Positions 7,008 to 42,412 are shown, counted from the stretch's first letter. The stretch is 64,000 nt of DNA from an uncultured Dehalococcoidaceae bacterium (GCA_964342875.1 CAYFHI010000001.1:5384-69383), one strand, 5' to 3'. Notes: generated by a model from the letters alone, not told the origin. Numbers and translations are program-made.

Positions 7008-8183
7008 TTATAACAGAGAGGGGATATCCTTTATCGTGAGGTCAATCCCTCGTTGCTGGTCTACCAAACCATTCTGGCGTTTCTTAAGTGCAGATATTAA
7101 CGAGATTGCTTTAGTGAAGTATCCCCTGATTTTTTCGAGATCACTAAACTCGGATAATACCACGGTAACATCCAGCATACCCCTATCTCTGGGGTAATCA
7201 CCGCTCCTGATAATAGCCTCCGGAGCCATACCCTTTAAATAAGTTCCGAGCGCTTTTATCAGGTCCATACTAATTTCCCTGGCAGGTGCCGATACGAGAT
7301 ACATGGCTCTTTTGGCATCTATGGGGTTACACTTGACTGATAATCCGCTGATAGCTTCATCCATTGCTTGGGTTCCCTTCTGGGTTTCCGTAGCCTTATC
7401 CCTGAAGTCTCGCGCTCCATCGAAGAGCGATTTGAGGAGTGACGTATGAGACTTGCCATAACCTAAAGTTGTCCAGCCGGAGAGCGACTGTATTATATCG
7501 CCGGCATCCAGCATCTTCGCCCCAATGTATTTCGGTTTTTTCTCTTCTCCGGCACAGAGAAGGCTAAAAAACGGCTCCACTATCATCGCGTTGATCTTGG
7601 TCATATTGCTGCTGATCGATGCGTCTTTAGAGAGATATCTTTGGTTATCAACCAGAAATATCGCATCTGCTACTAGATAGCTGGATTTAAGGCATGTGGC
7701 TACGTTATATATGGTTCTATCTTCAGTGGATTCTTCGTGCTCAAATGGAAGGATGATAAGGTTATATACCGGTTTATCTACAAACCGTTCCTTAATTTGC
7801 TGCGTCATAATTGGGATAGAACCGGAGCCAGTACCGCCAGATGCGCCAGCAACGAGCAAGAAGGCATCCGCTTCAGAGAAACGTTTGGTAGTTCTTACCG
7901 TATCAATTATTTTATCGGCATCCTCCTTGGCTATTTCAGCACCCAGCTCATTTATTTTCCCCACGCCGTGGCCACCGGTCTTCCGTCCGCCAATGAGAAT
8001 ACGGTGCTGGTAATCAGACTTTATCGTCGACAGTCCGCTTAAATCAGCTACATCGGTATTAGCAGCATAAGCGCCAACGATGATATCCAGACCACGAGCG
8101 CCGCGTGCTTTCCGGTTCAGCCTTGCAAACTCATCCGTAACCCTACCGCCACATTGTCCAAAACCTAAAACTACTAATTTCAT
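7008..8183 (-). CDS. Tubulin/FtsZ-superfamily GTPase, CetZ/tubulin-like, paralog 2
   Basis: 391 aa, gap-free colinear with paralog 1 (71 of the first 100 residues identical by eye). GFGQCGGR, GASGGTGSGS, MLDAGD, LVDNQRY and SGDYPRD motifs. Identical tail KDIPSLL. Confidence 0.8.
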   Translation of the reverse strand: MKLVVLGFGQCGGRVTDEFARLNRKARGARGLDIIVGAYAANTDVADLSGLSTIKSDYQHRILIGGRKTGGHGVGKINELGAEIAKEDADKIIDTVRTTKRFSEADAFLLVAGASGGTGSGSIPIMTQQIKERFVDKPVYNLIILPFEHEESTEDRTIYNVATCLKSSYLVADAIFLVDNQRYLSKDASISSNMTKINAMIVEPFFSLLCAGEEKKPKYIGAKMLDAGDIIQSLSGWTTLGYGKSHTSLLKSLFDGARDFRDKATETQKGTQAMDEAISGLSVKCNPIDAKRAMYLVSAPAREISMDLIKALGTYLKGMAPEAIIRSGDYPRDRGMLDVTVVLSEFSDLEKIRGYFTKAISLISALKKRQNGLVDQQRGIDLTIKDIPSLL

Positions 8184-14529: not shown

Positions 14530-15099
14530 TCAGAGAGTCGTTGCCGATTTTATCCGTAGAGGTATGCCTGCTGCCATAAGATAGACCTCATCCACGGTCT
14601 CTGTCAGCATTTGGTTAGTCTTGCCGAGAAGATCTCGATATAACCGGCTGGTATAATCTGTCGGCACTAGGCCGAGTCCAACCTCGTTGGTGACTAAAAT
14701 AAAGCTGGCATTAACCGACTTAAGACACCCGTTAAGTCCACCAATCTCTGCTAGGACCTTTTTTTCGGCTTGCTGGGCATCAATCTGTTCATCAGTATCT
14801 CTGACGTGTTCAAACATAATATTGTTAACCAGAAGGGTGATGCAATCGATAATCACCGTCTGTGATTCACCGATGTTGTTGGTGATAAGCTTACCTAAAT
14901 ACTTGGTGATTTCAAGGGTGGTCCAATCGACTGGTCTTGCTTTCCGGTGCTCCTCGATTCGCTGGCGCATCTCTTCGTCGCTGGCGGTGGCGGTCGCTAC
15001 AAAAAGGATGGGCTTACCTGATTTCAGGGCAAGCTCCATGGCAAAATTACTTTTACCGCTGCGGGCGCCGCCGAGTATTAGAGTGTTAATCTGGCTCAA
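14530..15099 (-). CDS. cobU: Adenosylcobinamide kinase / adenosylcobinamide-phosphate guanylyltransferase
   Basis: 189 aa. P-loop GGARSGKS. Length and layout are typical of CobU/CobP. Confidence 0.85.
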   Translation of the reverse strand: MSQINTLILGGARSGKSNFAMELALKSGKPILFVATATASDEEMRQRIEEHRKARPVDWTTLEITKYLGKLITNNIGESQTVIIDCITLLVNNIMFEHVRDTDEQIDAQQAEKKVLAEIGGLNGCLKSVNASFILVTNEVGLGLVPTDYTSRLYRDLLGKTNQMLTETVDEVYLMAAGIPLRIKSATTL

Positions 15100-20637: not shown

Positions 20638-20949
20638 TTATTTGTTAATAATTAGATTCAACCGGTTTATTGTACCGGTGCCTTTCAGGGTAGAAACCAT
20701 CCCTGTAATGGTCTCAGAGATAATTTTATTGGCGAAAGGAGTCAGTGAAATCACCGCACCGTTAAGATTTAATTTTACCTGTCTCTCTTCATCGATGGAA
20801 AGCTCCAGGTTTTCAATTTTACCTGTTCCCCTCAAACTGCCCAGAATTCCATTGACAATATGCTCTAAAAAACCCTGAGTAAAGTATTTCAGTTTAACGG
20901 GGATATCGTTAACCGTAAGTTCTACCTGTTCTAGCATCGTACTGTCCAC
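20638..20949 (-). CDS. Hypothetical 103-aa protein with internal duplication
   Basis: Two similar halves: GILGSLRGTGKIENLELSI and GMVSTLKGTGTINRLNLII. Co-oriented immediately downstream of the tusA-like gene. Confidence 0.55.
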   Translation of the reverse strand: MDSTMLEQVELTVNDIPVKLKYFTQGFLEHIVNGILGSLRGTGKIENLELSIDEERQVKLNLNGAVISLTPFANKIISETITGMVSTLKGTGTINRLNLIINK

Positions 20950-20963
20950 TTAATACTCCTCTT

Positions 20964-21197
20964 TTAATCGTGCGTCTTCTTTACGTAGACCTTGATTTCC
21001 TCGCCTTCATCTTCTATTCCCAGGAACCCATACCCGGTGGCGTCACACCATGCCGGCATATCCTGCTTTATTCCCTGGTCATCACCTACTACTTCAAGGA
21101 CTTCTCCAGTCTTTAACTGCTTAATCTTCTCGTTAGCTTTGACAATCGGCATTGGGCAATACAGACCCATGCAGTCTAGGGATTGATCTGCCCTCAT
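20964..21197 (-). CDS. tusA: TusA/SirA-family sulfurtransferase
   Basis: 77 aa. Conserved CPxP motif (LYCPMPIV). Confidence 0.85.
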   Translation of the reverse strand: MRADQSLDCMGLYCPMPIVKANEKIKQLKTGEVLEVVGDDQGIKQDMPAWCDATGYGFLGIEDEGEEIKVYVKKTHD

Positions 21198-21231
21198 TTT
21201 CTCCTCCTTGATATGTTATCGAAAACATTGT

Positions 21232-21720
21232 TTAGATAAAAAGGGTAACGCTGGACTTGCGGGCACTATTCAGGAAATAGGCAGCACCAGCCATACTTGT
21301 AATTTCACTGCGGAATGCGTCTTGCTCTGCGGGTAAGCCCATTACCCCGCACGTAGTCGTGCAGGCAATAATTTCTACTCCCATATCATGAGCCATGGTG
21401 ATATATTCGCTGACGGACGGCATATTTGTATCCTTCATCAGTCTCTTCATCATCCATGTGCCCAGCCCAAACATGTTGAATCGGGAAAGTTTCAGTCTCT
21501 CGCTGCCACCTCGGTTTATCGAGTTCAGCATCTTCCTCAACAATCCTTTACTCTTTATACCGTCTTTGTTCTTTTTAACAATATTCAGTCCCCAGAAGGT
21601 AAAGAACATGCTTACCTGCATTCCCATGCTGGCACCGGTGACCGCCAGCATAAAAGCAGCCAGAGCCCTTTCCAGATCTCCACTTAAGACCGCTATCGTA
21701 AGTTTTTCCTTATCAGCCAT
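21232..21720 (-). CDS. DsrE/DsrF-like family protein
   Basis: 162 aa. Layout is like the DsrE/F-related COG2210-type proteins that pair with TusA. Conserved Cys in IIACTTTCGVMG. Confidence 0.65.
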   Translation of the reverse strand: MADKEKLTIAVLSGDLERALAAFMLAVTGASMGMQVSMFFTFWGLNIVKKNKDGIKSKGLLRKMLNSINRGGSERLKLSRFNMFGLGTWMMKRLMKDTNMPSVSEYITMAHDMGVEIIACTTTCGVMGLPAEQDAFRSEITSMAGAAYFLNSARKSSVTLFI

Positions 21721-21744
21721 TTTACCTCTCCTCCCGATTATATC

Positions 21745-21933
21745 CTACCCTTTTATTTGAGTCCCGCAATGCGAGCAAATCTTCTTATCTCGGGGTGTAG
21801 GCGCACGGCAACTGGGACAGTAGAATATGGTTACTTCGCAAGCACCGCAAGTTGGAATCGGATCATTGGCTATTTCCTCGTCACAATAAGGACAAAATCG
21901 TACTTCTTTCTCAATTCTTTGTTTATCTTCCAT
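21745..21933 (-). CDS. Small zinc-ribbon protein (62 aa)
   Basis: Four CxxC pairs: CPYC, CGAC, CPSC and CSHC. I trimmed the start to Met27 of the track ORF because the upstream part overlaps iscU. Confidence 0.5.
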   Translation of the reverse strand: MEDKQRIEKEVRFCPYCDEEIANDPIPTCGACEVTIFYCPSCRAPTPRDKKICSHCGTQIKG

Positions 21934-22330
21934 CCTGCCTGTCCTCCTTATACCTTTCCCTTTTTTTATTCCGGTAATCCTCAATAGCTTTATGCAGAGC
22001 TTGGGCGCCAAGGTTAGAGCAGTGAAACTTGTTCTTGGGTAATCCCTCTAGTTTCTCCGCTACCAGTTGAGGAGTAATTTTCATTCCTTCATCCAATGTT
22101 TTGCCCATTGCCATCTCGCTGACCATGCTGGATACAGCAATCGCTGCCCCACAGCCGAACGTCTTGAATTTTATATCTTCGAGATGGTCATCTTCAACTT
22201 TGATATAAAATGTCATCATATCGCCACATACCGGATTGCCTTCTTCACCGATGCCATCCGGGTTCTCAATTTCTCCTACGTTACGGGGATTCATAAAATG
22301 GTCCATTACTGTTTCGCTATAAATCGGCAT
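21923..22330 (-). CDS. iscU: Fe-S cluster assembly scaffold IscU/NifU N-terminal type
   Basis: Three scaffold Cys motifs: NPVCGDMM, FGCGAAIA and HCSNLG. Start set at Met24 of the track ORF (MPIYSETVMDHF...). Confidence 0.9.
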   Translation of the reverse strand: MPIYSETVMDHFMNPRNVGEIENPDGIGEEGNPVCGDMMTFYIKVEDDHLEDIKFKTFGCGAAIAVSSMVSEMAMGKTLDEGMKITPQLVAEKLEGLPKNKFHCSNLGAQALHKAIEDYRNKKRERYKEDRQDGR

Positions 22331-23519
22331 ATTTACTGCCTCCTTTGCCCGTTTTACTGAATTTTGCATAAAGCGGTGACATCTGCCGTAGCCTGTCAAC
22401 GATGGATGGCATCACCTCAAGAATATAGTCGATGTCCTCAAGTGTATTATCGATACCAAGTGTAAAAAGGATGGAACCCTGAGCAATCTCATGGGGCAAT
22501 CCCATAGCTATAAGCACGTGAGAAGCTTTGAGTGCCCTCGAAGTGCAGGCAGAACCGCTGGAAACGGCAATACCTTTGCTATTTAACATCATGAGCATAG
22601 ATTCACCTTCGATAAATTCAACGCAGCAGCTGACATGTCCGGGAAGGCGATTCCGGGGGTGCCCCGTAACTATTACCCGTTTAATCTTCTCTGGTAACTT
22701 CTTTAATAAGTGGTTACGGAGTTGTGTCAGTTGTTGCGTTCGTGTGACCATGTTTAGTCTGGCCAACTCCGCCGCTTTGCCAAGACCGACGATCGCCGGA
22801 ATATTCTCTGTTCCGGCACGCCGCCCTCCTTCCTGAATACCGCCGTCCAGAAGCGGCATAATGCGCATACCCTTTCGCAGGTAGAGAGCGCTACCTCCCT
22901 TGGGACCGTAGAACTGGTCGCTCGCCAGGCTTAAAGAATCAACTCCCAATTCCTTGACGTTTATCGGTATGTTCCCAACGGTAGCCACCGCATCCGTGTG
23001 GATGGGTATATTATGCTCTCTGGCGATGCTGGCAATCTCCGCTAAAGGTTCAATAGTACCTACTTCTCCGTTAGCGTGCATCACAGAAATTAATCCCGTG
23101 TCTTTTCTGATGCTGCGCTTAACCTCATCGGGATCTACCATGCCGTACTTATCCGCCGGAACCAAAGTCAGCTTAAAGCCCCATTTTCCCAAGGTTCTTG
23201 CCGAGTGGAGCACGGAAAAATGTTCGATGGCCGAAATTACCACATGTTTGCCTTTGGCTTGCTGAGCCAGTGCTATTCCCTTGATGGCAAAGTTATTACT
23301 TTCTGTGCCGCTGCCAGTGAAGATTATCTCTTCGGGACTGGCTCCTATCAGTGAAGCTACCTGTTCTCGTGCTACCTCAATCGCTTCCCTAGAAGCGTCT
23401 CCCCAGTCGTGAAGAGAGGACGGATTGCCAAATGTCTCTCCAAAGTAGGGCATCATCGCATTCCTCACCTCTGAGAGAAGGGGCGTCGCCGAGGCATTAT
23501 CTAAATATACTCTCCTCAT
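22317..23519 (-). CDS. IscS/NifS-family (class V aminotransferase fold) protein lacking the PLP-binding lysine
   Basis: 400 aa, colinear with IscS. The persulfide loop SSGSACTS is retained, but SGHK is ASDQ (D201, Q202) and HxDAxQ is HTDAVAT. Confidence 0.85.
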   Translation of the reverse strand: MRRVYLDNASATPLLSEVRNAMMPYFGETFGNPSSLHDWGDASREAIEVAREQVASLIGASPEEIIFTGSGTESNNFAIKGIALAQQAKGKHVVISAIEHFSVLHSARTLGKWGFKLTLVPADKYGMVDPDEVKRSIRKDTGLISVMHANGEVGTIEPLAEIASIAREHNIPIHTDAVATVGNIPINVKELGVDSLSLASDQFYGPKGGSALYLRKGMRIMPLLDGGIQEGGRRAGTENIPAIVGLGKAAELARLNMVTRTQQLTQLRNHLLKKLPEKIKRVIVTGHPRNRLPGHVSCCVEFIEGESMLMMLNSKGIAVSSGSACTSRALKASHVLIAMGLPHEIAQGSILFTLGIDNTLEDIDYILEVMPSIVDRLRQMSPLYAKFSKTGKGGSKYADL

Positions 23520-23574
23520 TATTATATCTCAACCAAGGACGATAATTCACGATACTTAATAGACACAGCTTGAG

Positions 23575-24102
23575 TTACTCCCTTCCTGTAGTTCCTGCCA
23601 GTATCCTCTTTCGAATTGTTATGAAAAGAGGCTGCTCAATGGCGGTATGTTCCAGCAGTAATTGTCGTGTATGGCTTATATGGGCCCTCATATCATGAGC
23701 GCTGGCTTCCCATCTATGACGTGCCAGCCTGTCGCTAATAAGTTCGGTCACTTGCTTCTTCACATGGGTAAGGCGATCTCTAAAAACTCCATGCTGGAGA
23801 AGCAGAGCTTTCAAGTCGGAAACCAGTTTTTTATCACCGTATCTTTCAAAGACATGTAAAAGGACCGTTTCTTCACGGTTGAAGTGTGCCAGAAGACCTT
23901 GGTTGATTGTATCCAGCGACTCCAGAAACTTTTGTAATCCTTTACCCAAGTCCAATCTGCCAGGCATAAATGCGTCCTTGGCTGCATCTATCCCAGAAAT
24001 CGCAGCAGCGTCACCAAACATCCCATCAAGTTCTTTAAACCTTTTAAAGGCGATCTGGTGTTCTTGAATAATCTGGTCAATCAAGTCCAGGGCTTCCTTC
24101 AT
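23575..24102 (-). CDS. Hemerythrin-like (HHE cation-binding) domain protein
   Basis: 175 aa, helical, with spaced H/E residues (IQEH, HFNREE, LLQH). Weak by-eye call. Confidence 0.45.
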   Translation of the reverse strand: MKEALDLIDQIIQEHQIAFKRFKELDGMFGDAAAISGIDAAKDAFMPGRLDLGKGLQKFLESLDTINQGLLAHFNREETVLLHVFERYGDKKLVSDLKALLLQHGVFRDRLTHVKKQVTELISDRLARHRWEASAHDMRAHISHTRQLLLEHTAIEQPLFITIRKRILAGTTGRE

Positions 24103-24631: not shown

Positions 24632-24686
24632 TTGATAAAGTGTATACTGTATGCTACTATGGGGTATATTAGATAACTTTATACCC
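24632..24686 (+). promoter_or_regulatory. Predicted csoR promoter with candidate CsoR operator
   Basis: TTGATA, 17 nt, TACTAT (24632-24660), followed directly by the inverted repeat GGGTATA-N11-TATACCC (24662-24686). This lies inside the 5-prime extension of the track ORF, which supports the downstream start. Confidence 0.4.
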
Positions 24687-24713
24687 TATCGTTTACACAA
24701 GGAGGATTGCAGT

Positions 24714-25007
24714 ATGCCAGCGCCAGGAAGACAATATCAATATACTAAAGATAAAGCGGCTCTACAGACGAGAATGAAAAAAATCGAGGGCCAGGCAAAG
24801 GGTATCCAGCGAATGATTGAAGAAGATCGTTACTGCATTGATATTGTCCAGCAGTTATCTTCTCTTTCCTCAGCGGCTGAAGAGGTGTCTTTACATATTC
24901 TTCAGGCACATATTGAAGGATGCGTAACCAGCGCAATATGTGAACAGAGCGGAGAGAGTTATATTACAGAATTGATGGAAACGATTCGCAAAGCGGTGCG
25001 GCGGTAA
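24714..25007 (+). CDS. csoR: CsoR/RcnR-family metal-sensing transcriptional repressor
   Basis: 97 aa from the ATG at 24714 (AAGGAGG RBS). DUF156 pattern RMKKIEGQAKGIQRMIEEDRYCIDIVQQ with C-H-C ligand positions. Confidence 0.85.
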   Translation: MPAPGRQYQYTKDKAALQTRMKKIEGQAKGIQRMIEEDRYCIDIVQQLSSLSSAAEEVSLHILQAHIEGCVTSAICEQSGESYITELMETIRKAVRR

Positions 25008-25259
25008 CTCCATGAATAATTATAACTTATACTAAATACTTATTGTTGTTAGAATAAATCTAAAGGACGTATTATTTTGAATAAGGGAAGGAATTGTTCC
25101 TGACGACTTTAAACTTGGAGGTGAAGTGGTGGCGAAGGGTAAATACGATACGGCTGTATTCTAGGTAGGGGGGGCGGCGCCAGTTGTTCTTTTTGCAGTA
25201 TCAGTCACTAGGCGGATAAAAGAAATATACCGCTTAAAAATTGGTTGGAGAAAGCTAAT

Positions 25260-27950
25260 ATGAGATCGAATACCATCAAGAAAACAAAGAACGTAATTTT
25301 ACCCATTACAGGGCTGACCTGTGCATCCTGTGTGTCTTACGTGGAAAAGACGCTGAGAGAACTTGACGGCGTCGTCTCGGTCAACGTTAATCTGGCTACG
25401 GAAAAAGCCATTGTGGAATATGATGGTGATAACGCCGATATCAAGATGCTGATTGATGCCATTACCGGTAGCGGTTACGGGGTGACGCCGCAAAAGACAA
25501 CATTTAAAGTAACCGGTATGACCTGTGCTTCCTGCGTGTCCCAGGTGGAGAAAGCTCTGCGGGGACTTAGCGGTGTCGTCTCGGTAAACGTGAATCTGGC
25601 TTCAGAGAAGGCTACCGTTGAATATGATGCTGGTAAAGTCGGTATGGAAGATTTTCGGAAAGTGGTAGAGGGGGCCGGATATGGCGTCGGGGAGGAGATT
25701 GACGCTGAGAGTATCGTCGAGTCTGATGTCGTCTTGGCATCGGCAAATAAAGAGATTCTAACCCTGCGTAGCAAGTTGCTTTTTTCCGGCGTTATGGGCG
25801 CCTATATGATGATTATCGCCATTGCTGAATTGTACGGTGGATCATGGCTGCCGTCTTTTTTCAGTAATCACTATATACTCTGGGTGCTAGCGACGCCGGT
25901 TCAATTCTGGGCAGGCTGGCAATTCTATCGCGGTACGTGGGGGGCATTAAAGCATAAAACATCAAATATGAATACCTTGATTGCCGTGGGGACTTCGGCG
26001 GCTTATTTCTATAGCGTCGTCGCTATCCTAGCTCCCGGGTTCTTCGCCGCCGGTGGTCGGGAAGCAAATGTTTACTTCGACACTGCGGTTATCATTGTCG
26101 CCCTCATTCTGCTGGGGCGCTTCTTGGAAGCACGGGCAAAGGGTAGGACATCAGAGGCAATCAAGAAGTTGGTGGGTATGCAGGCAAAGACAGCTAGGGT
26201 AATGCGCCAGAGTACTGAAACCGATATACCGGTTGAGGAAATAGTCGTTGGGGATATCATCATCGTGCGGCCGGGAGAAAAAATACCGGTGGATGGTGTT
26301 CTCAGAGAAGGACTCTCCGGCGTCGATGAGTCGATGGTTACCGGCGAAAGCATTCCGGTAGAAAAAGGGGTTGGCGACGAGCTTATCGGCGCTACAATTA
26401 ATAAGACCGGTAGTTTTCGTTTTGAAGCTACCAAGGTGGGTACAGACACGGTACTTGCCCAGATTATCAAGTTGGTGGGAGAGGCGCAGGGCAGTAAGGC
26501 ACCCATTCAAAGGCTGGCGGATATCATAGCTGCCTACTTTGTGCCGGCTGTTATCGGTGTGGCTGCAATCACCTTTCTCTCGTGGTATTTATTTGGACCG
26601 GAGCCGGTATTGACCTTTGCTTTGTTAAATTTCGTCGCTGTCATTATCATTGCCTGTCCTTGTGCTCTTGGACTGGCGACCCCTACCGCTATTATGGTAG
26701 GTACCGGCAAGGGAGCCGAAAACGGCGTTCTTATCCGTAGCGGCGAGGCACTGGAGACAGCCCATAAAATAAATGCCATTATCCTCGATAAAACTGGCAC
26801 GTTGACGCAGGGGAAACCGGCGGTAACGGACATTGTAACCGCAGCTAGTTTTAAGGAGGATGAGTTGCTGACGATGATCGCTTCCGCGGAGTGCCGCTCC
26901 GAGCATCCTCTCGGTGAGTCAATAGTCACTGCGGCTAAAGAGAAGGGCCTTAACCTTGTTGATGCCACTGAGTTTAACGCCGTTCCCGGGCATGGCATCG
27001 AAGCCGGAATTGACGGACGCAAGATACTATTAGGTAACATAAAACTGATGAAAGAGCGAAAAATACCACTGGATGGTCTGGAGGAAAGGGCTGTCCAATT
27101 TTCTAACGATGGGAAAACGCCGATGTATATCGCAGTTGATGGCAAGGCGGCAGGACTGGTCGCTGTGGCGGATACCATTAAAGCGGACTCAAAGGGGGCG
27201 GTGGCGGAACTGCAGCGACTCGGTATCGAGGTGGTAATGCTCACCGGTGATAATAAGCGTACCGCCGAAGCTGTAGGTAAACAGGTGGGAATTGATCGTA
27301 TTCTTGCCGAGGTGATGCCGGAGTATAAAGCGCAGGAGGTAAAGAAGCTTCAGGAGGAAGGTGGAGTGGTGGCGATGGTGGGCGACGGCATTAATGATGC
27401 GCCGGCGTTGGCTCAGGCTGACGTGGGGCTTGCCATTGGAACGGGTACTGATGTGGCGATGGAAGCCGCCGATATTATCTTGATGAGCGGTGACCTGTGG
27501 GGGGTGGTTACTGCCATTTCACTAAGTAAGCGGACATTAAGAACCATCAAGCAGAACCTTTTCTTGGCTTTTGCCTACAACGTGTCCTTGATACCAGTGG
27601 CGGCTGGTGTGCTGTACTTTGTTTTCGGGCAGAGTGGAACGCCGCCGGGCTTGCAGTTTTTCCTGGGTGATTTCGGATTTCTGAACCCGATGTTAGCCGC
27701 CGTCGCGATGGCTTCCGGTTCGGTGACAGTAGTCTCTAATTCCCTGCGTTTGAAAAATTTTAAACTTGCCACTCTGGCAAATAAATTAAAAGAGGTTTGT
27801 ATCATGGCTATTGACCCGGTCTGCAAGATGGACGTTGAAGAAAGCACCGCCGCGGTTACCTCTAAATACAAGGGTAAGACCTACTATTTCTGTGCCTTGG
27901 GCTGCAAAAAAGCTTTCGATGGTGACCCAGAGAAATACCTGCTTGAGTAA
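25260..27950 (+). CDS. copA: Copper-translocating P1B-type ATPase with two HMA domains and a C-terminal YHS/TRASH-like domain
   Basis: GLTCASCV and GMTCASCV motifs, TGES, CPC, DKTGT and GDGINDAP. C-terminal extension DPVCKMDV...[15 protein letters not shown] at 25260 preferred over the TTG at 25245 on RBS spacing. Confidence 0.92.
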
Positions 27951-28736: not shown

Positions 28737-29651
28737 TCATTTTCCCAGTCGCTGTAAATAGCGGTGGGCTTGGAGCGCCGCCTTGGCGCCCTCCCCGGCG
28801 GCAATAATAATCTGCTTCTCAGGTACGTCGGTGACATCTCCGGCAGCATAAAGACCGAGAGCCGTGGTCTCACAAAGACAGCTGACGGGTACCTCTTTCT
28901 GTCTGGTTAATTCAAGGAGTCCGGCTACCGCACTCGAATTGGGTACTAACCCTATCTCGATAAAAACGCCGGTAACATCCAGATTTTTCTTCTCGCCGTT
29001 CTTTACGCTTTTTATGACGATTCCTTTCACCAGGCCATCACCCTCTATTTTCTCGGTATCATATTCAATATAAGTGCTCAGGTTTTTCACACCCGATAGC
29101 TGCTTAGTTAGAACGGGGTCGGCAGTTATCGGGGTCAGCGAAACTAGGTCGACATGCTCGGTAATTTTTATCATGTCCAGAGCCGCCTCGACCGCCGAGT
29201 TGCCGCCGCCTATCACCGCCACTCTCTGCCCGGAGAAAACAGGCCCGTCACAGATGGCGCAATAAGTTACACCCATCCCGGTTAACTCGGCTTCGCCGGG
29301 CACATTTAACTTTCTGGGTTTCTTTCCGGTAGCGAAAACCACTGCTTGTGCCTGGTACTTTTCACCGGAATCAGTGGTGGCTTCGAATCCCCCTTTTATC
29401 GCTGTCAGTTTGGAAACCTTGGGACCAATCTTCTGGTCTACGGGAAACTGGCTCACCTGCGCCTGAAATTTACTTATCAGATCCGGACCTTCGATAAATT
29501 GATAACCAAGATAATTCTCAACGCCCATAGTACTGTTTATCTGGCCACCGATATCACCACTGATGAGAAGGGCCTTTAGCTGTTTGCGTGCAGCATAGAC
29601 AGTGGCGCAAAGTCCCGCGGGACCGCCGCCGATTATTATCAATTCATACAT
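28737..29651 (-). CDS. trxB: Thioredoxin-disulfide reductase
   Basis: GGGPAG FAD motif, redox-active CAICDG and GGGNSAVEAA NADPH motif. Start at MYELIIIGGG (ATG at 29651) with a GGAGG RBS. Confidence 0.9.
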   Translation of the reverse strand: MYELIIIGGGPAGLCATVYAARKQLKALLISGDIGGQINSTMGVENYLGYQFIEGPDLISKFQAQVSQFPVDQKIGPKVSKLTAIKGGFEATTDSGEKYQAQAVVFATGKKPRKLNVPGEAELTGMGVTYCAICDGPVFSGQRVAVIGGGNSAVEAALDMIKITEHVDLVSLTPITADPVLTKQLSGVKNLSTYIEYDTEKIEGDGLVKGIVIKSVKNGEKKNLDVTGVFIEIGLVPNSSAVAGLLELTRQKEVPVSCLCETTALGLYAAGDVTDVPEKQIIIAAGEGAKAALQAHRYLQRLGK

Positions 29652-29701: not shown

Positions 29702-29938
29702 CTATGTCAGCAATCCATCTAATTTTGACTGAACGAAACCTACCATAAGTTCATCACCAACGGTTATTACCGGCACGCCCATCTGTTTGGACTTCCCTAT
29801 CATCTCCTCTAGAGCGACCTTGTCTTCAGCCACATTATGGTCCACGTAAGAGATACCCTTTTGCGAAAGATACTCTTTCGCTCTCTTACAGTAGGGTCAA
29901 GTAGGGGTCGAATAGATAACTATCTTTTTATCAGACAT
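29702..29938 (-). CDS. Glutaredoxin/NrdH-like protein with in-frame TGA at the active site (putative selenoprotein, UPYC)
   Basis: Not in the ORF track. Minus-strand translation is MSDKKIVIYSTPT[TGA]PYCKRAKEYLSQKGISYVDHNVAEDKVALEEMIGKSKQMGVPVITVGDELMVGFVQSKLDGLLT*. The TGA is codon 14 (29897-29899), exactly where the first Cys of CPYC sits. Confidence 0.6.
29846..29889 (-). promoter_or_regulatory. SECIS-like bipartite stem-loop downstream of the Grx TGA
   Basis: Seven nt after UGA: outer stem GUAAGAGA/UCUCUUAC (8 bp), then inner stem GCGAAAGA/UCUUUCGC (8 bp) with a GUA loop and a 9-nt 3-prime bulge. All arms are perfect complements in the sequence. Confidence 0.5.
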
Positions 29939-30454
29939 TTTCTTACCTCTCTCCCGTCATCGATTTGTAATGTAATGCTCGAGACCGTATAGTAGCTCAA
30001 TGGTATAATCTTGTCGGTAAATTTGTCAATTCCGTTGGTTGGACAGTACCGTATCCACGGTTGTATTTAATTCGCTCGTTGTTAGTATGATATACTGGTT
30101 AGAAACGCAGGTATGTAACCTTATAGAGGAGAAAACGGATATCGCTTTGACGATGATAGCTAGCAAATTAAACTTCAAGGCACACTGTAAAACCACGGCG
30201 ATGGCAATAATGCCTCACAGTGGCTTTAACAAAGCGCTGGATATGGTTCTCAGTCTTGATATTCCCTTCAGGCCGCAGCTATCCTATGTGTGATTTAAAT
30301 CATATGCACCCTCGGTTTTATTAATATAGAATCACTATGGCAAAACTATTGGCAGAATAATAATTTAGATTTATTTTCCATTACACCTTAAGAACGGCGA
30401 AATTGTTTCAGGATTCGGAAAGAATGGAATTCATCTGACAGAAGGAGATGGTAA

Positions 30455-30985
30455 ATGGTAACGGAACAGGAAAAAACTGCCGAAGTACTTAAAATGGCTA
30501 TCCAGATGGAAACCGATGGCAAAGAATTCTATTTAAAAGCCAGTAAAAAAAGCTCTAATGACATGGGAAAAACTTTGTTGCAAACACTGGCTAAGGAGGA
30601 AGATTTACATCGGATAAAGTTCCAGGAAATATACGATGCCATCAGTAAAGAAATGGCTTGGCCGACGGTTGATTTGCATCTCGATGGCGGCAAAAACCTG
30701 GAAACTGTATTAGCCACGGCAACTAGGGAAATAAGCTCTGATAACAAGGGGGTTTCAACTGAACTTGAGGCAGTTCAGACGGGGATGGCGATGGAGAATA
30801 AGACCTATGATTTGTATTTTGCCAGAGGTGAAAAAGCCAGCGGTAGTGCCGAGAAAGATTTTTATAAATCATTATCTGTAGAGGAAAGAATACACTACCA
30901 GCTTCTACAGGATTATTATGAATACCTGAAAGACCCGGCGGGGTGGTTTATTAGGAAAGAGCATCCGTCACTGGATGGCGGTTAA
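30455..30985 (+). CDS. Rubrerythrin/ferritin-like diiron-domain protein (no rubredoxin domain)
   Basis: 176 aa. Paired helices with E...ExxH patterns (EEDLHRIKF, EERIHYQLL). Confidence 0.65.
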   Translation: MVTEQEKTAEVLKMAIQMETDGKEFYLKASKKSSNDMGKTLLQTLAKEEDLHRIKFQEIYDAISKEMAWPTVDLHLDGGKNLETVLATATREISSDNKGVSTELEAVQTGMAMENKTYDLYFARGEKASGSAEKDFYKSLSVEERIHYQLLQDYYEYLKDPAGWFIRKEHPSLDGG

Positions 30986-31102
30986 GTAAACAATATAGTG
31001 TACCTCTCTCACGATCAGATGGTAACTACTTTCCTTGTTAATAACTGTGACACCGGAGAGTTTCGAACAGGCAAGGGAGTGGATTTAAAAGGAGATATTT
31101 GA

Positions 31103-32287
31103 ATGAGACCCAGAGAAATAAGGCCTGGGATATATCAGGTTGGAGCGATTGACTGGGACAGGCGGTTATTTGATGCCCTGGTACCTCTCCCTGACGGTAC
31201 CAGCTATAACTCATATTTAGTTAAAGGTAGCCGAAAGACAGCACTTATTGACACAGTAGACTCTTTGATGACAGACGTACTGGTTAACCACCTGGATAAG
31301 CTTGGAATTAAAAGGATAGATTACATTGTCGCTCATCACGCCGAACAGGATCACTCTGGTTCTATTCCCCGTATTATTGAAAAATATCCTCAAGTAAAAA
31401 TCGTTACCTCCCCCAAATGTAAAGGAATGCTTATTGACCTGTTGACTGTGCCGGAAGAGAAATTTGTCACCGTGGATGACCGGGAGACTCTATCACTGGG
31501 GGATAAAACCCTTGAGTTTATCCGCACACCATGGGTTCATTGGCCGGATACTATGGTTACCTATCTAAAAGAAGACAAAATATTATTCACCTGTGATTTC
31601 TTCGGTTCCCATATTGCCGGTAGTGACTTGTATGTGACTGATGAAGGAAAGGTAACTGAAGCTGCCAAGAGATATTATGCCGAAATTATGATGCCTTTCC
31701 GTACCGTTATCCAGAATAACCTGGAAAAAATCAAGGACTATGCCGTTGACTTAATTGCTCCTAGCCATGGCCCGGTTTATGATAAACCGAAATTCATTCT
31801 GAAAGCCTACCGTAGTTGGGTTACTGATGAACCAAAAAACATCGTAGTTTTGCCTTATATTACGATGCATGGTAGCACGCGCCGGATGGTCGAATACTTC
31901 GTCGATGCTTTAATCCAGAGAGGCGTGACGGTGAAACAGTTCGACCTGATAGCAACCGATATGGGTAGACTGGCGATAGCGCTTGTAGATGCTGCCACGC
32001 TAGTCATTGGGACGCCTACCGTTCTCGCCGGTCCGCATCCAAATGCTATTCGCGCCGTTTTCCTGGCAAATGCGCTGAGACCCAATCTAAAATTTGCGTC
32101 GATTATTGGTTCCTATGGCTGGGGGGGGCGTACTGTTGAACAACTGGTCGGCATTATCCCCAATCTGAAGGTAGAACTGTTGGAGCCCGTGCTCTCGAAG
32201 GGTCATCCCAGGGAGGAGATTTTTAAGGCTCTGGATAACCTTGCTGAAACAATTGCCCGAAAACACAAGGAGTATAATTTCAATTAA
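31103..32287 (+). CDS. fprA: FprA-type flavodiiron protein (MBL-like plus flavodoxin-like domains)
   Basis: 394 aa. Diiron motif HHAEQDHSG and a C-terminal flavodoxin-like half. Confidence 0.87.
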   Translation: MRPREIRPGIYQVGAIDWDRRLFDALVPLPDGTSYNSYLVKGSRKTALIDTVDSLMTDVLVNHLDKLGIKRIDYIVAHHAEQDHSGSIPRIIEKYPQVKIVTSPKCKGMLIDLLTVPEEKFVTVDDRETLSLGDKTLEFIRTPWVHWPDTMVTYLKEDKILFTCDFFGSHIAGSDLYVTDEGKVTEAAKRYYAEIMMPFRTVIQNNLEKIKDYAVDLIAPSHGPVYDKPKFILKAYRSWVTDEPKNIVVLPYITMHGSTRRMVEYFVDALIQRGVTVKQFDLIATDMGRLAIALVDAATLVIGTPTVLAGPHPNAIRAVFLANALRPNLKFASIIGSYGWGGRTVEQLVGIIPNLKVELLEPVLSKGHPREEIFKALDNLAETIARKHKEYNFN

Positions 32288-32289
32288 TA

Positions 32290-32850
32290 ATGGTAAGGAG
32301 AGGTCAATACAAAAGGAAAATCATTGGGCTGTTAAATGCTGACCTTCAGGATGAACATAGTGCCATTATCCAGTATCTAGATCAAGCCTACGTAATGCGT
32401 GGAGGCGAAATGTCTTGTGAGGTTGAAGCTATCTACCGGGATGAAATGCGCCATCTGGACTGGCTGGCGAAAGCAATTGTCGAACTCTGCGGCATTCTCA
32501 GCCTGGATAGAAGTAAAATGATGATGAGCGGTAAACGGGTGACCGAGTGGATGAGCAATGACGTGAGCTTGGGAGAGAGTGCCATCATCCAGTACAGGGA
32601 ACAAATAAATCTTATCGATAACCCTAGGATAAAACGACTGCTGAAACGTATCCTTTCGGATGAGGAGGCGCATCGGGATAAATTTACCCAAGATGTGGGG
32701 AACGGATATTATCGGCATGGCGAAACTATTCGGAAACTGAATTGGGCCATAGAGCATGAGTACACCGTCATTCTTCAGTATTTATTCCATTCTTACATGA
32801 CAACCAGCCCGGAAACGAAAAACCAGTTTGAAAACCAGGCGGTTAATTAA
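32290..32850 (+). CDS. Ferritin/bacterioferritin-like protein, apparently the truncated front of a tandem two-domain gene
   Basis: Domain 1 is complete (LNADLQDEHSAIIQYL...RDEMRHLDWLAKAIVELCG...SDEEAHRDKF). Domain 2 starts (LNWAIEHEYTVILQYL) but ends at a TAA that aligns with the Glu of the ExxH motif. Confidence 0.6.
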   Translation: MVRRGQYKRKIIGLLNADLQDEHSAIIQYLDQAYVMRGGEMSCEVEAIYRDEMRHLDWLAKAIVELCGILSLDRSKMMMSGKRVTEWMSNDVSLGESAIIQYREQINLIDNPRIKRLLKRILSDEEAHRDKFTQDVGNGYYRHGETIRKLNWAIEHEYTVILQYLFHSYMTTSPETKNQFENQAVN

Positions 32851-33134
32851 ATGCAGTACCTTGGCTGGCTTGTCGGGAAGCTGGTTGATATGGGCGGCGT
32901 ACCAAATTTGATCGTTCTAGGGAAACCGCCAAAATGCCGCGCGCCAATATCGATATAGAAGAGAAGATGGCTACTAAGTATGGACGCCATAGCATGGAAA
33001 TTGAAGACCCCGACCTGAAAAAACTCCTTCAGCGCATCAGGGATGAGGATAGCGGTCGTATTGACCCGAAAATCAATGAAGACTACCACCATGAGGTGTT
33101 TAATGACCTGCTTCAAGAGGAGGAAGGAAGATAA
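32851..33134 (+). pseudogene. Detached, frameshifted remainder of the second ferritin-like domain
   Basis: Immediately after the TAA: MQYLGWLVGKLVDMGG (compare MRHLDWLAKAIVELCG). A stop and frame change then lead to ...DPDLKKLLQRIRDEDSG... (compare NPRIKRLLKRILSDEEAH). Confidence 0.45.
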
Positions 33135-33182
33135 AAGGTACAAATGTTCTTTTTGTAAATCGGAAGAGGAGGTATTTTTAAC

Positions 33183-33662
33183 ATGCCTGATTCCTTTACC
33201 GGTAATGACCTGATTAATATAGCCATCGGTATCGAAAGAAATGGAATCGCCTTTTACGATATCATGTCCAAGTCGACAGAAAATGCGGAAACCAGCGACA
33301 TTTTTCGCCATCTCGCTCAAATGGAGGGGCAGCATATTCAGATTTTTCAGGGTATGCTTAATGAATCCAATAGATACCTCGAAATAGAAACCAAGGAACA
33401 TATATCTTATCTACAGACGTTAGCCGATAACGCTATTTTCACCGATGAAATGGTCACCAGCGAATTGGCTACCCAGGCGGATAGTGACGTTAAAGCCTTG
33501 GAACTGGCAATCGTTGCCGAAAAGGACTCACTGTTATTTTATTACCAGATGAGGGACATGGTTCCACGGCAGGCATACCCTGAGGTAAATAAGATAATAG
33601 ATGAGGAAAAATCACACTTGAGGCTGCTTTCTGAATTGAAAAAGCGGCTAGCGGCTATTTAA
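33183..33662 (+). CDS. Rubrerythrin/ferritin-like domain protein
   Basis: 159 aa. IAIGIERNGIAFY...LAQMEGQHIQIF...AIVAEKDSLLFY...EEKSHLRLL four-helix pattern. Confidence 0.62.
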   Translation: MPDSFTGNDLINIAIGIERNGIAFYDIMSKSTENAETSDIFRHLAQMEGQHIQIFQGMLNESNRYLEIETKEHISYLQTLADNAIFTDEMVTSELATQADSDVKALELAIVAEKDSLLFYYQMRDMVPRQAYPEVNKIIDEEKSHLRLLSELKKRLAAI

Positions 33663-39218: not shown

Positions 39219-39824
39219 CTAGTCAATATAATAGACTGACGGATTAGTACCTAATTCTGCCTGAAGCTGAATACCTCTCCTTTCCCTGATTAATTGTGAG
39301 ACCTCACTTGCCGGGTCGTCGAGGTTACCAAAGATGCACGCTTTTGTAGGACAGGTAATCACACAAGCCGGTTCCAGCCCCTGTTCTAGCCGACGAAAAC
39401 AGAAATCACATTTCTGCACTGTTGCCCTCTGGAAATCTTGAGGTGCCGTTACTTCATAGGGATTGAGTCCCTTCGGGAAATAGGTCTTATCCTTGGGCTT
39501 CCCCCAGTAAAATCGGCTTCCATAAGGACACGCCATCATACAGGTACGACACCCGATGCAGATATCATAATCCACATAAACTATGTCGTCATCTCGCTTC
39601 GCGGTTGCCCCGGTAGGGTAAATATCGTGGCAGGGAGGTTCCTGACAATGGTAACAAAGCGTTGGAAGGTAGGTTCTGTTGACTGAAGGGTATTTCCCTT
39701 CTTCCTTCTCTATTACCCGTGCCCAGAAAACTGGCGGTGGGGTTTTATTCTCGACTTTGCAAGCCATCAGGCAAGCGTAACAACCGATGCTTCTTTTTAG
39801 GTCCAATATCATTTCGTATCTCAC
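39219..39824 (-). CDS. 4Fe-4S ferredoxin-type electron-transfer subunit of a DMSO-reductase-family enzyme
   Basis: 201 aa with four Cys groups. Groups III (CIGCRTCMMACP) and IV (CDFC...CVITCP) are canonical. Group I reads SIGCYACLMAC and group II CYHCQEPPCHDIYP. Confidence 0.85.
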   Translation of the reverse strand: MRYEMILDLKRSIGCYACLMACKVENKTPPPVFWARVIEKEEGKYPSVNRTYLPTLCYHCQEPPCHDIYPTGATAKRDDDIVYVDYDICIGCRTCMMACPYGSRFYWGKPKDKTYFPKGLNPYEVTAPQDFQRATVQKCDFCFRRLEQGLEPACVITCPTKACIFGNLDDPASEVSQLIRERRGIQLQAELGTNPSVYYID

Positions 39825-39826
39825 TT

Positions 39827-42412
39827 TTACCTCTCAGCGACGGCGCGAACTTTTACTTTTATACAGGTATCCATTGCTTGGGTAACTGGGTCTATAGTTT
39901 CCAAACTAGCCCTGAGCAGAGTGTTATAGTGGACACCTTTACCTTTGGCGGTAGTTAGTCTGGCTGCCCAATGACCAAAGCAACCAGCAATCCCGATTAC
40001 TTCGGGGTGGATACCTTCAGTAAGTTTGATTCTCCCCGTTACTTTGTCACCCGATTTGGTTTCAAGTGACACTATGGCTCCGTCTTTAATCCCCTTCTTT
40101 TTGGCTATTCCAGCATTCATAAGGATGTTGTAGGCAGAGGGGTGATATTCACTTACTTCATTCAGCCATGGATTGTTACCCGTAATTGAGAAAGTATGAA
40201 ATGCGATTTTATAGTTAACGGCGTACAGATCAAACTCCGGTTCTTTTTCTTCATAAGCGGGACATGGTTTCCAATCAGGGAGTGGTTGATAATCGGAAAC
40301 ATCCCACTGCTTGATGCCCATCTCTTCAGTTACCCGCTTTACGCCTTCACCCACTTTAATGATATGCTCCAGATAAATTGGCGTTCTCGCCTGGAAGAAT
40401 TGCGTCGGGTAGACCTCCTCAACCTTCTTGGGCCATTTTATAAAACCGTTCTCCTTAAACCACGCAAGGTCATGCTCGGGATTGAATTCACTTACTATCA
40501 GTCGCTCGCATATTTCTTCCCAGGTGTATTTTTTGTTGATGTCAAGTTTGTAAGGTTCGTGTATGTCATAAGAAAGGTTAAGCATATGGTAAATATCTCC
40601 CAGAAAGCCTACTCTTTCCGCTATTTCCAAAAGAACTTCATTCCAATTTCTCACACCGGGAGGAGCCTCTACCACTGGCTGTCTGATTTGGAAACACCAA
40701 TCATTAGCCAGTCCCACCGGGTTCTGCTCACTTTCGCCGCTCACTCCTGCCTCCAGCTTCTCCAGGAAGTGACTATCTGGCAGAACTATGTCGGCCATTT
40801 CCGTAGTCTCATCAATCTCAACAGCGAATGATACCACCATATCGAATTTCCTGAACCATTCGGCTCGTTGCTCAGGGTTGCCCGTGGTCATCATAAGATT
40901 GGTACGGCTTTGAAACAGAACTTCAGGTTTATAAGGGAATTTAAACTCTTTGGGATTCAGTATATTGAGCAGACCCATAGGCTCCACAACCACAGCCATT
41001 GGAGTGAGTTCTCGCAAAAATACATTTTCGGGAGGTGCTGCCTCGGGGGGTGGGTAGGGACTTGTCTTTGACTTTAATATACGTCCTCCGGGCACCATCA
41101 TTCCATCTTGGCTCATACTATAACTCCAGCTGAAGTTGGCCAATTTATTGGGTAAAAGCACGGGGCAAACACCCACACTTCCTCCAGGCATGCCAACATT
41201 ACCGATAATGATATTTAACAACTGAATAGCAAAGCAATTCAGCAGAGAGTGCTTATGCTGAGAGGGGCCCTTCCTGTTATGGGCACAAGCAGGCCTATAA
41301 GGAAGCTCTTTCCCGTCAATCACAATGGTACTTCCTATTCTGGCAGCTTCGCCAAATTCTGTGGCAATTCGACGTATTGTCTCTGCTGGTACGGTAGTTA
41401 TCTCAGAAGCATATTCGCAAGTATACTTCTTTACATGCTCTTTTAGTAGTTCGAATGAAGGTCTACCAGTAATGCCATTTACCTTGTAGCTTCCCTCTAA
41501 GGCAAAGTCCTTTATGGACGGATCATCATAATATTTCGCCTTTCCGTCTGTAGTGTCCCATACTAAGGGTTTAGAGTTATCTTCGTCTCTGATATAATGT
41601 CCATCCGGACCAATAAGGTAAGATCCATTCGCGTATTTTTTTAAAAACTCGGCATCATAGATCCCCAGTTCGTTGAGAAGGACATTAATCATTGCCAATA
41701 CGAAGGCAGCGTCTGTGCCTGGTCTTAGCGGTATCCACTCGTCAGCTTTGGCAGCTGCCGGACCTAATATGGGGTCGACGGCGATGTGTTTCATCCCTCT
41801 GCTCTTGGCATCGGCAGTGACCTCACTTGCTATCATGGCATGTTCGCCTATCGCGTGACCGCTTTGAGCGCCAAATAGAATCAGGTAGTTACAATGATGC
41901 ACATCAACTTCCTTAGCAAATGCCCCCGTTGTAATATAGGAAATTGGATGCAGTCCGTTACCACAGAACCAATCGGCGGCGCCCACTGATAAGTTTGGCA
42001 TCTTTGGTGTTCCGAAAGCCAGCATAAAAGTTCCTCTCATAGCCACCTGATTTGCAAGATCGAAAGACTCCCATACCAGTTTCCTCGGGTCCTCTTTTCT
42101 GATTTTCTTTAACTTTTGTGATATTGTATCAAGTGCCTCATTCCAACTGATCTCCTCCCATTGTGGGTCTACCCCTTTACCTTTCTCAGGATTTGTCCTC
42201 TTGAGTGGAGTTTTCAGGCGGTCCGGACTGTAGAGGTTCATTATGGCGGCATTCCCCTTGGCACATAATCTGCCCTCGTTGTTAGGACAATCCGTGTTGC
42301 CCTCTATCTTCGTTGCCACTCCATCAACAACATGTACTTTTGTCCCGCACCCGTTGTAACACATGCTGCAACACGTTTTTATCCATTCATCTCTGACGGT
42401 TTTGCTTTCCAT
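39827..42412 (-). CDS. Molybdopterin (Mo/W-bisPGD) oxidoreductase catalytic subunit, cytoplasmic type
   Basis: 861 aa. N-terminal FS0 motif CCSMCYNGCGTKV...C. No twin-arginine signal. DMSO-reductase-family length and domain order. Substrate unknown. Confidence 0.85.
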   Translation of the reverse strand: MESKTVRDEWIKTCCSMCYNGCGTKVHVVDGVATKIEGNTDCPNNEGRLCAKGNAAIMNLYSPDRLKTPLKRTNPEKGKGVDPQWEEISWNEALDTISQKLKKIRKEDPRKLVWESFDLANQVAMRGTFMLAFGTPKMPNLSVGAADWFCGNGLHPISYITTGAFAKEVDVHHCNYLILFGAQSGHAIGEHAMIASEVTADAKSRGMKHIAVDPILGPAAAKADEWIPLRPGTDAAFVLAMINVLLNELGIYDAEFLKKYANGSYLIGPDGHYIRDEDNSKPLVWDTTDGKAKYYDDPSIKDFALEGSYKVNGITGRPSFELLKEHVKKYTCEYASEITTVPAETIRRIATEFGEAARIGSTIVIDGKELPYRPACAHNRKGPSQHKHSLLNCFAIQLLNIIIGNVGMPGGSVGVCPVLLPNKLANFSWSYSMSQDGMMVPGGRILKSKTSPYPPPEAAPPENVFLRELTPMAVVVEPMGLLNILNPKEFKFPYKPEVLFQSRTNLMMTTGNPEQRAEWFRKFDMVVSFAVEIDETTEMADIVLPDSHFLEKLEAGVSGESEQNPVGLANDWCFQIRQPVVEAPPGVRNWNEVLLEIAERVGFLGDIYHMLNLSYDIHEPYKLDINKKYTWEEICERLIVSEFNPEHDLAWFKENGFIKWPKKVEEVYPTQFFQARTPIYLEHIIKVGEGVKRVTEEMGIKQWDVSDYQPLPDWKPCPAYEEKEPEFDLYAVNYKIAFHTFSITGNNPWLNEVSEYHPSAYNILMNAGIAKKKGIKDGAIVSLETKSGDKVTGRIKLTEGIHPEVIGIAGCFGHWAARLTTAKGKGVHYNTLLRASLETIDPVTQAMDTCIKVKVRAVAER

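Follow-up and report, generated by a model that had tools for sequence, protein, structure and literature searches.

We report a gene for a small glutaredoxin-like redox protein whose single in-frame TGA almost certainly codes for selenocysteine. The gene lies on the minus strand of a 64,000-nucleotide stretch of DNA (hereafter the window; GC content 46%) from an uncultured Dehalococcoidaceae bacterium. We put at about 0.88 the probability that it encodes a genuine selenoprotein, with SECIS-directed insertion of Sec into a YruB/Cp9-type redoxin that works with the adjacent reductase. Sec-glutaredoxins and Cp9/Cp34-type pairs are known, and the gene adds one more to a selenoprotein family already described, whose genes are cut short by gene callers. 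It comes from a lineage already known as selenoprotein-rich and carries a SECIS of the textbook bacterial type. The selenoprotein reading had been put forward in a preliminary description of the window, and each check suggested there that was run here favours it; it is supported by TGA-bearing orthologues, a hairpin downstream of the TGA, purifying selection and homology to a Sec glutaredoxin.

Results

A TGA at the catalytic position of a glutaredoxin-like gene

The 237-nt minus-strand frame with one TGA that had been described before was reproduced in both its coordinates and its translation. It runs from ATG to TAG over 79 codons (29938-29702; 78 residues and the stop), contains a single in-frame TGA (29897-29899), and has a good ribosome-binding site. 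The features of the gene are:

29702..29938, minus strand: coding sequence of a YruB/Cp9-type glutaredoxin-like protein of 78 residues with Sec14 in U-P-Y-C (from translation, family models, TGA orthologues and dN/dS)
29938-29936, minus strand: ATG start codon
29704-29702, minus strand: TAG stop codon
29897..29899, minus strand: in-frame UGA at codon 14, almost certainly read as Sec, aligned with the first (attacking) Cys of CPxC
29946..29951, minus strand: ribosome-binding site GAGAGG, 7 nt 5' of the ATG (read from the sequence)
30000..30029, minus strand: promoter-like TTGACA-18-TACCAT, about 60 nt 5' of the ATG (a consensus match only)

The frame translates as MSDKKIVIYSTPT-(TGA)-PYCKRAKEYLSQKGISYVDHNVAEDKVALEEMIGKSKQMGVPVITVGDELMVGFVQSKLDGLLT-(stop), and the segments around the TGA read MSDKKIVIYSTPT-(TGA)-PYCKRAKEYL, followed by GVPVITVGDELMVGF and a terminal LLT. 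The standard ORF list holds just the C-terminal 47 aa of the gene (29702-29845). With Cys substituted for the stop, residues 6-64 match the Pfam Glutaredoxin model PF00462 at 68.8 bits (cut-off 22.9), and TIGR02196, the YruB-family glutaredoxin-like model, covers the full length at 92.8 bits (cut-off 88.55). The best match among solved structures is 7C10 (E = 6e-14, 27/74 aligned residues identical). The U-P-Y-C motif makes up residues 14-17, and both the translation and the alignment of homologues bear out that the TGA stands exactly at the first Cys of C-P-Y-C.

The TGA is conserved in intact and constrained orthologues

Four other assemblies of this population (L004-L007), which derive from at least three sample accessions and different assemblers, contain the whole 237-nt gene with 100% identity, TGA included. 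Among the 120 best homologues, codon 14 is Cys in 113 and 'W' in seven. The DNA check took in four of the seven 'W' homologues (P0001, P0004, P0008 and P0087; the other three are P0022, P0032 and P0099), and in all four the 'W' proved to be a TGA read as Trp, the gene callers having chosen genetic code 4 on short contigs; the ORFs were otherwise intact. Orthologues had been expected to carry either Cys or TGA at this codon, and this is the pattern found at the positions so checked.

The TGA also occurs at the same codon in five Dehalococcoidia-type sequences (L001, L002, L003, L038 and L045), whose proteins are about 70-86% identical in amino acids to that of the window. When GTDB species-representative genomes were searched with a degenerate pattern that picks out T-P-T-TGA-P-[YFW]-C, 24 further genomes had TGA at this codon, all with intact frames; they are mostly Desulfobacterota, together with one MAG each from Chloroflexi, Blastocatellia and Zymogenaceae. 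For the window gene paired with each of the four Dehalococcoidia-type Sec forms measured, dN/dS was 0.04-0.15. The 13 codons 5' of the TGA showed 3.5-7 synonymous changes per 8.8 sites versus 2.5-4.5 non-synonymous changes per 30 sites. The low dN/dS and the same synonymous excess upstream indicate that both flanks of the TGA are translated in one frame.

We analysed the use of TGA elsewhere in the window. It is the stop codon of 16 of the 47 ORFs of at least 180 aa, so the genetic code is standard and TGA is not reassigned. An in-frame TGA also separates two adjacent genes of the window, and translation with table 11 gives ORFs of normal length.

A SECIS-type hairpin follows the UGA

Downstream of the UGA the transcript can fold into a hairpin that may be extended by further pairing:

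29863..29881, minus strand: candidate core SECIS hairpin GCGAAAGA-GUA-UCUUUCGC, 8 bp with a 3-nt loop (from fold, covariation, codon test and consensus criteria)
29842..29894, minus strand: candidate extended SECIS stem-loop with lower stems CUAC/GUGG and GUAAGAGA/UCUCUUAC (-24.1 kcal/mol)

With numbering that starts at the U of the UGA, the core hairpin spans positions 19-37 (16-34 nt after the UGA), and its loop, which begins with GU, lies 23 nt after the UGA. Bacterial SECIS elements have been characterized by an apical loop of 3-9 nt on a stem of 4-16 bp, a G in the first two loop positions that is usually followed by G or U, a distance of 16-37 nt from UGA to loop, and a minimum free energy of -7.5 kcal/mol or lower (PMC13188914). 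A check for such an element had been suggested in the preliminary description, and the hairpin agrees with all four published criteria, having a GUA loop, 8 bp, a distance of 23 nt and an energy of -8.6 kcal/mol for the core alone or -24.1 kcal/mol when extended. The extended stem-loop has a z of -2.4 versus shuffles, and its lower stem is only partially conserved among relatives.

In the Sec forms of both phyla this hairpin recurs at an unchanged distance from the UGA, its loop being GUU or GUA. Over 29 Sec forms, 89% of cells were paired, and three pairs showed changes on both sides (five sequences have U-A for C-G, and two have A-U for G-C); none of 500 shuffles equalled the real alignment in covariation score or paired fraction. 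Slid registers paired 35-70%, and the slide -2 control likewise showed three pairs with changes on both sides. As the 29 sequences are related, we consider the covariation supportive and modest rather than decisive. De novo folding of the 29 Sec forms with RNAalifold did not recover the hairpin and gave a weak, different structure (-1.07 kcal/mol), which is why the named hairpin was tested directly. Rfam, with no fitting bacterial SECIS model, gave no SECIS-type match for the window at the gathering threshold or for the gene at E <= 10.

Synonymous codons and probable switching between Sec and Cys

The stem lies inside the codons for A-K-E-Y-L-S-Q, and its pairing needs Ala to be GCG, Ser UCG, Leu CUU and Tyr UAU. 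Given this peptide and the codon usage of the window, the chance of a full stem is 0.003. Four independent Cys forms that encode the same peptide served as DNA-level controls: the stem is missing in two (L040; L041/L042), one pair is broken in L039, and the hairpin is intact in L043/L044. The low chance and the frequent lack of an intact stem in Cys forms with the same peptide argue that the hairpin is no by-product of the peptide; its retention in L043/L044 means that it is not exclusive to Sec forms either. A pattern scan of metagenome contigs for TGA and TGY forms gave a single Cys-type match, which is frameshifted.

The peptide motif [AV]KEYLS[QR] is present in all nine Sec forms of the Dehalococcoidia group versus 20 of 112 Cys forms (roughly p = 1e-6, a hypergeometric estimate uncorrected for phylogeny). 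The nearest neighbour of five of these nine Sec forms is a Cys form, which suggests that Sec and Cys forms have switched repeatedly. The most telling case is the pair L038 (TGA) and L039 (TGC), which are 99.2% identical over 1216 nt and differ within the gene at three bases only: ACC/ACT before the UGA, TGA/TGC, and UCG/UCA. The last of these, a silent change of UCG to UCA in the Cys form, breaks the C20-G36 pair of the hairpin. The two sequences may thus be seen as a natural experiment, which supports a link between the UGA and the hairpin. Such a near-isogenic pair and its well-documented Sec/Cys-polymorphic family, with a simple and strongly conserved SECIS, are useful for studying Sec/Cys interconversion and for training selenoprotein finders.

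The adjacent reductase resembles AhpF

The gene is followed by a reductase gene, and genes for oxygen and peroxide defence diverge from the pair:

28737..29651, minus strand: FAD-dependent pyridine-nucleotide-disulfide reductase, 304 aa, C-A-I-C redox centre, 50 nt downstream of the redoxin gene
30455-30985, plus strand: rubrerythrin, divergent from the redoxin/reductase pair
31103-32287, plus strand: flavodiiron protein, divergent from the pair
32290-32850, plus strand: ferritin-like protein, divergent from the pair
33183-33662, plus strand: second rubrerythrin, divergent from the pair

This neighbour had been called trxB. It is indeed co-oriented with the redoxin gene and lies 50 nt downstream of it; it is TrxR-like but not a typical TrxB, and the C-terminal part of AhpF is closer. 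When compared with solved structures, the reductase scores 253 bits against the AhpF core (1FL2) and at most 189 bits against any TrxR. It also has LTP, like AhpF, at the position where TrxR has its HRR NADPH motif. From the scores and this motif we assign the gene to an AhpF-C-like reductase.

The redoxin and reductase genes are probably co-transcribed. Their adjacency is conserved in other Dehalococcoidia, whether the redoxin is a Sec or a Cys form, and in the Desulfobacterota loci with Sec forms, where the reductase is about 50% identical to that of the window. In the Desulfobacterota loci a flavodiiron protein gene often comes directly after the reductase gene (in L026 it starts 4 nt after it), with rubrerythrin nearby. 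The neighbours of the pair in the window are rubrerythrin, flavodiiron protein and CopA, and the divergent defence genes (30455..33662, plus strand) are likely to be its functional context, as distinct from proven partners. No peroxiredoxin (AhpC/TSA) gene adjoins the pair; the sole AhpC/TSA-family ORF of the window (51560-52084) is 22 kb away, beside a gene for a CcdA/DsbD-type membrane protein. We saw no msrA or glutathione genes in the window, and no rubredoxin among the ORFs read in the oxidative-stress cluster.

Comparison with known redoxins

The closest solved structure, 7C10, shows Clostridium oremlandii Grx1, which its authors describe as a selenoprotein in its native form, with a U(C)PXC motif, crystallised with Cys in place of Sec; it is described as reduced by GSH and as itself the reductant of the selenoprotein MsrA (PMC7642778). 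Grx1 of C. (Alkaliphilus) oremlandii OhILAs (7C10/7C12; Kim et al. 2011, as cited in PMC13188914 and PMC7642778) and the window protein are both thioredoxin-fold PF00462 proteins of about 80 aa with an N-terminal U-P-x-C in which Sec comes first. They differ in sequence (about 36% identity), in host (Firmicutes versus Chloroflexota), and in partners, GSH and MsrA in the one case and an AhpF-C-like reductase with a flavodiiron/rubrerythrin neighbourhood in the other. Replacement of Cys by Sec in thioredoxin-fold proteins had been cited as an established class, and a published table of selenoprotein families does contain the entry 'Glutaredoxin (Grx), PF00462, UxxC', placed above the group 'predicted with high confidence' (PMC13188914). 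The reference attached to that entry is a biochemical study, Kim et al. 2011.

In Clostridium pasteurianum, the YruB protein Cp9 receives electrons from the NADH-dependent TrxR-like Cp34 and passes them to the peroxiredoxin Cp20 (Reynolds et al. 2002, as summarised in PMC3720550). The window pair resembles this system in that its redoxin is of the YruB family, with 75-80 aa and a C-P-[YW]-C type motif, and in that the redoxin gene adjoins a TrxR-like flavoprotein that looks like the C-terminal part of AhpF without the AhpF N-terminal domain. However, Cp9 has Cys where the window protein has Sec. The gene order also differs: C. pasteurianum has the reductase in front, then the redoxin, then the peroxiredoxin, whereas here the redoxin comes first and no peroxiredoxin adjoins the pair.

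The comparison with Desulfobacterota covered 21 deltaproteobacterial-type MAG loci among L013-L036. These share the TGA position in T-P-T-U-P-Y-C, the hairpin and its distance, and a downstream AhpF-C-like reductase. They differ in sequence (45-55% amino-acid identity) and in the longer C-terminal tails of their proteins (82-95 aa). Between redoxin and reductase they have an additional gene, for a classical CPFC glutaredoxin, and a flavodiiron gene has been fused into their operon. A Geobacter protein, WP_010943784.1, is entered as a Sec-containing Grx-like protein (PMC13188914) and may be related to these.

Several other assignments were tried and rejected. The protein had been described as Grx/NrdH-like; the glutaredoxin part stood, by its PF00462 match, and the NrdH part did not. 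NrdH-redoxins are alike in being small glutaredoxin-like proteins reduced by a TrxR-type flavoprotein rather than by glutathione; however, the score against TIGR02194 is 39.9 bits (cut-off 85.75), the motif is U-P-Y-C and not C-[VMI]-Q-C, and the window has no nrdHIEF genes. The UXX-star family, in which Sec stands three residues before the C-terminal stop, was set aside with 62.8 bits against NF041212 and its subfamilies (cut-off 66), as the protein ends ...LDGLLT-TAG with no C-terminal TGA. A selenoprotein homologous to the AhpF N-terminal domain is likewise not indicated (TIGR02187, 22 bits versus a cut-off of 185). The classical Grx3 model TIGR02181 gave 60 bits (cut-off 90).

Sec machinery and lineage

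Neither tRNA-Sec nor selA, selB or selD was found when the 64-kb window and about 10 kb on either side of it were searched, and two scans of the window for other TGA-interrupted or selenoprotein genes returned nothing convincing. In BSepDB, two Dehalococcoidia MAGs, having 49 and 46 selenoprotein genes, rank in the top ten bacteria by number of such genes. This lends lineage-level support to Sec decoding, and we infer that decoding in this organism depends on SelB.

Discussion

The mechanism we favour is that the hairpin 16-34 nt after the UGA, carried on its longer stem, acts as a bacterial SECIS and recruits SelB with Sec-tRNA(Sec), so that the UGA would be read as Sec and not as a stop. On reducing its target, the protein would form a U14-C17 selenenylsulfide. 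It would then be re-reduced by the AhpF-C-terminal-like flavoprotein, probably with NADH, and the pair would in that case work like Cp34/Cp9. The electrons may be fed into peroxide/oxygen defence or into protein repair. The path from reductase to redoxin, the preference for NADH and the identity of the final acceptor are what we infer.

It is very improbable that this genome carries an ordinary Cys-glutaredoxin gene put out of action by a nonsense mutation. Such a pseudogene would fit the Cys at this codon in most of the closest homologues (113/120), the public gene calls that treat the locus as a 43-aa fragment, and the lack of Sec machinery within the window and about 10 kb beyond each end; yet the same TGA recurs in about 30 independent and otherwise intact orthologues from several phyla, dN/dS is low (0.04-0.15) with the 13 codons upstream of the TGA constrained too, and specific synonymous codons maintain the hairpin after the UGA. 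That a chance nonsense mutation at this codon was unlikely had been argued in the preliminary description, and the TGA in diverged intact orthologues and the purifying selection on both sides of it point the same way. The sign of decay named there, intact relatives with other lesions in this copy, is contradicted by a conserved TGA and the absence of a second lesion. We also see little room for a UGA decoded as something other than Sec, whether by reassignment (Trp/Gly, codes 4/25) or by near-cognate Trp/Cys readthrough. The 'W' given by gene callers to several orthologues on short contigs speaks for it, as does the Sec machinery not being seen in the window or its flanks of about 10 kb. Against it, TGA stops 16/47 long ORFs of the window, where table 11 gives ordinary ORF lengths; a CxxC oxidoreductase with Trp as its attacking residue would be inactive; the aligned residue is Cys in homologues and Sec in Grx1 of C. 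oremlandii; and a SECIS-type hairpin is present that co-varies with the UGA. Genetic codes 4 and 25 were rejected on this use of TGA as a stop and on the chemistry of the site. The chance that the TGA was created by a sequencing or assembly error is negligible: MAG contigs can carry errors, and the coverage of the related contigs is low (5-7x), but the sequence is identical in the four other assemblies, from at least three sample accessions and different assemblers, and the same codon is found in many unrelated genomes.

A real Sec gene could also serve a different role, its product being a glutaredoxin that depends on glutathione and, as in C. oremlandii, recycles a methionine sulfoxide reductase; this is possible though unlikely. 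It is suggested by the GSH-reduced cGrx1, the closest solved homologue and a reductant of the selenoprotein MsrA, and by the motif, which is of the classical glutaredoxin C-P-Y-C type. The family scores, however, place the protein above the cut-off of the YruB/Cp9 model and below that of Grx3 (60 versus 90 bits); the reductase gene is adjacent, probably co-transcribed, and paired with the redoxin gene across two phyla; and the window showed neither msrA nor glutathione genes. The Desulfobacterota loci carry a separate CPFC glutaredoxin between the two genes, which suggests distinct roles. By family scores and synteny, the glutathione role is thus less well supported than work with the adjacent reductase.

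The conserved redoxin-reductase module beside flavodiiron and rubrerythrin genes is brought to notice by this analysis. A speculative and rather doubtful extension is that the Sec-redoxin and its AhpF-C-like reductase form a dedicated selenium-dependent electron donor for flavodiiron proteins and/or rubrerythrins in anaerobes. This idea comes from two phyla, far apart, in which flavodiiron and rubrerythrin genes are linked to the pair, from the flavodiiron gene that directly follows the reductase gene in several Desulfobacterota loci, and from the absence of rubredoxin among the cluster ORFs read. If true, the module would replace the usual pair of NADH:rubredoxin oxidoreductase and rubredoxin.

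Occurrence and annotation of the gene

Proteins of the window were found identical on a 74,145-bp NCBI contig and in Tara Oceans marine assemblies, and among named homologues, those nearest to the redoxin and to the reductase come from MAGs assigned to Chloroflexota, Dehalococcoidia or Dehalococcoidales. The plasmid collection had no match to the gene, and a pattern scan of viral contigs for TGA and TGY forms had none either. In the public gene calls for the contig (NCBI, ENA and Logan), the gene is present merely as a 43-aa C-terminal fragment. In the protein collection, too, this fragment was the only form present, with both the W and the C versions of the full protein absent; the full gene is therefore unannotated. 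The present analysis corrects this annotation, for a gene that is a 43-aa fragment or uncalled in this MAG and its nearest NCBI relative, and that is, being cut or uncalled, missing from redox inventories of marine Dehalococcoidia. In GCA_042579965.1, the nearest relative with a long contig, the 78-codon glutaredoxin-like gene is uncalled, has TGA at the same codon, and lies just upstream of a reductase gene whose product is 80% identical to the window reductase.

Sec and Cys forms of the redoxin gene

The glutaredoxin-like gene was found in both Sec and Cys forms in a near-isogenic pair of loci from two ENA samples, and in the Sec form in a second NCBI Chloroflexota genome (GCA_042579965.1, contig JBHOVN010000005.1; locus L045).

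L038 946-1182: redoxin gene with TGA
L039 1343-1579: redoxin gene with TGC
L045 9692-9928: redoxin gene with TGA

L038 and L039 are 99.2% identical across 1216 nt, and within the redoxin gene they differ only at ACC/ACT, TGA/TGC and UCG/UCA. The last change, which is silent, disrupts a single base pair in the SECIS hairpin. As in the window, the L045 gene is 78 codons long, codon 14 being TGA, and it carries the SECIS hairpin of the window gene. No gene was called in the 600-nt gap 5' of the L045 reductase.

Neighbours of the redox pair

In the window, the following genes lie beside the redox pair (Sec-redoxin gene and AhpF-C-like reductase), within 20638-24102 (-) and 24651-27950 (+).

Adjoining the pair: CsoR-type copper repressor; the P-type ATPase CopA, which has a YHS domain at its C-terminus
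Beyond CsoR/CopA, on the far side from the pair: hemerythrin-like protein, NifS, probable NifU and probable DsrE-family genes

This arrangement is conserved in the related genome L045; synteny with L045 is the sole basis of the NifU and DsrE-family assignments.

In Desulfobacterota MAGs (loci L013-L036) the order is Sec-redoxin, classical CPFC glutaredoxin, then AhpF-C-like reductase; a gene for a flavodiiron protein often comes next.

L026 3010-5730: example of this gene run

The one-strand arrangement of these genes throughout, together with the spacing of only 4 nt between the end of the reductase match and the start of the flavodiiron match in L026, suggests that they form a single operon. 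In L017, a 1-Mb MAG contig, the reductase gene beside the Sec-redoxin (927-1826) aligns as four pieces in shifted frames, which suggests frameshifts arising from either long-read assembly errors or gene decay.

Other genes of the window

A cobalamin salvage and assembly cluster lies directly 3' of a cobalamin riboswitch.

54697-54842 (+): cobalamin riboswitch (Rfam RF00174; 32.6 bits, gathering score 31.5)
54953-55885: CobD/CbiB, with an aminotransferase listed between it and the CobT-like gene
57338-58510: CobT-like
58507-59262: CobS
14530-15099: CobU, apart from this cluster

A PhsA/DMSO-reductase-family molybdopterin oxidoreductase (861 aa) and its adjoining 4Fe-4S subunit occupy 39219-42412 (-). 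The lineage uses Sec elsewhere, but the oxidoreductase gene contains no in-frame TGA, so this enzyme has Cys or some other residue instead of Sec.

Two paralogous genes of 391 aa each both have precomputed Pfam matches to Tubulin (PF00091) and CetZ_C (PF21011).

2726-3901 (-) and 7008-8183 (-): tubulin-like paralogues
4098-6050 (+), 650 aa, and 6329-6910 (+), 193 aa: intervening ORFs, neither with a Pfam or NCBIfam match

Since CetZ-type tubulin homologues are as a rule archaeal, this gene pair is unusual for a Dehalococcoidia MAG.
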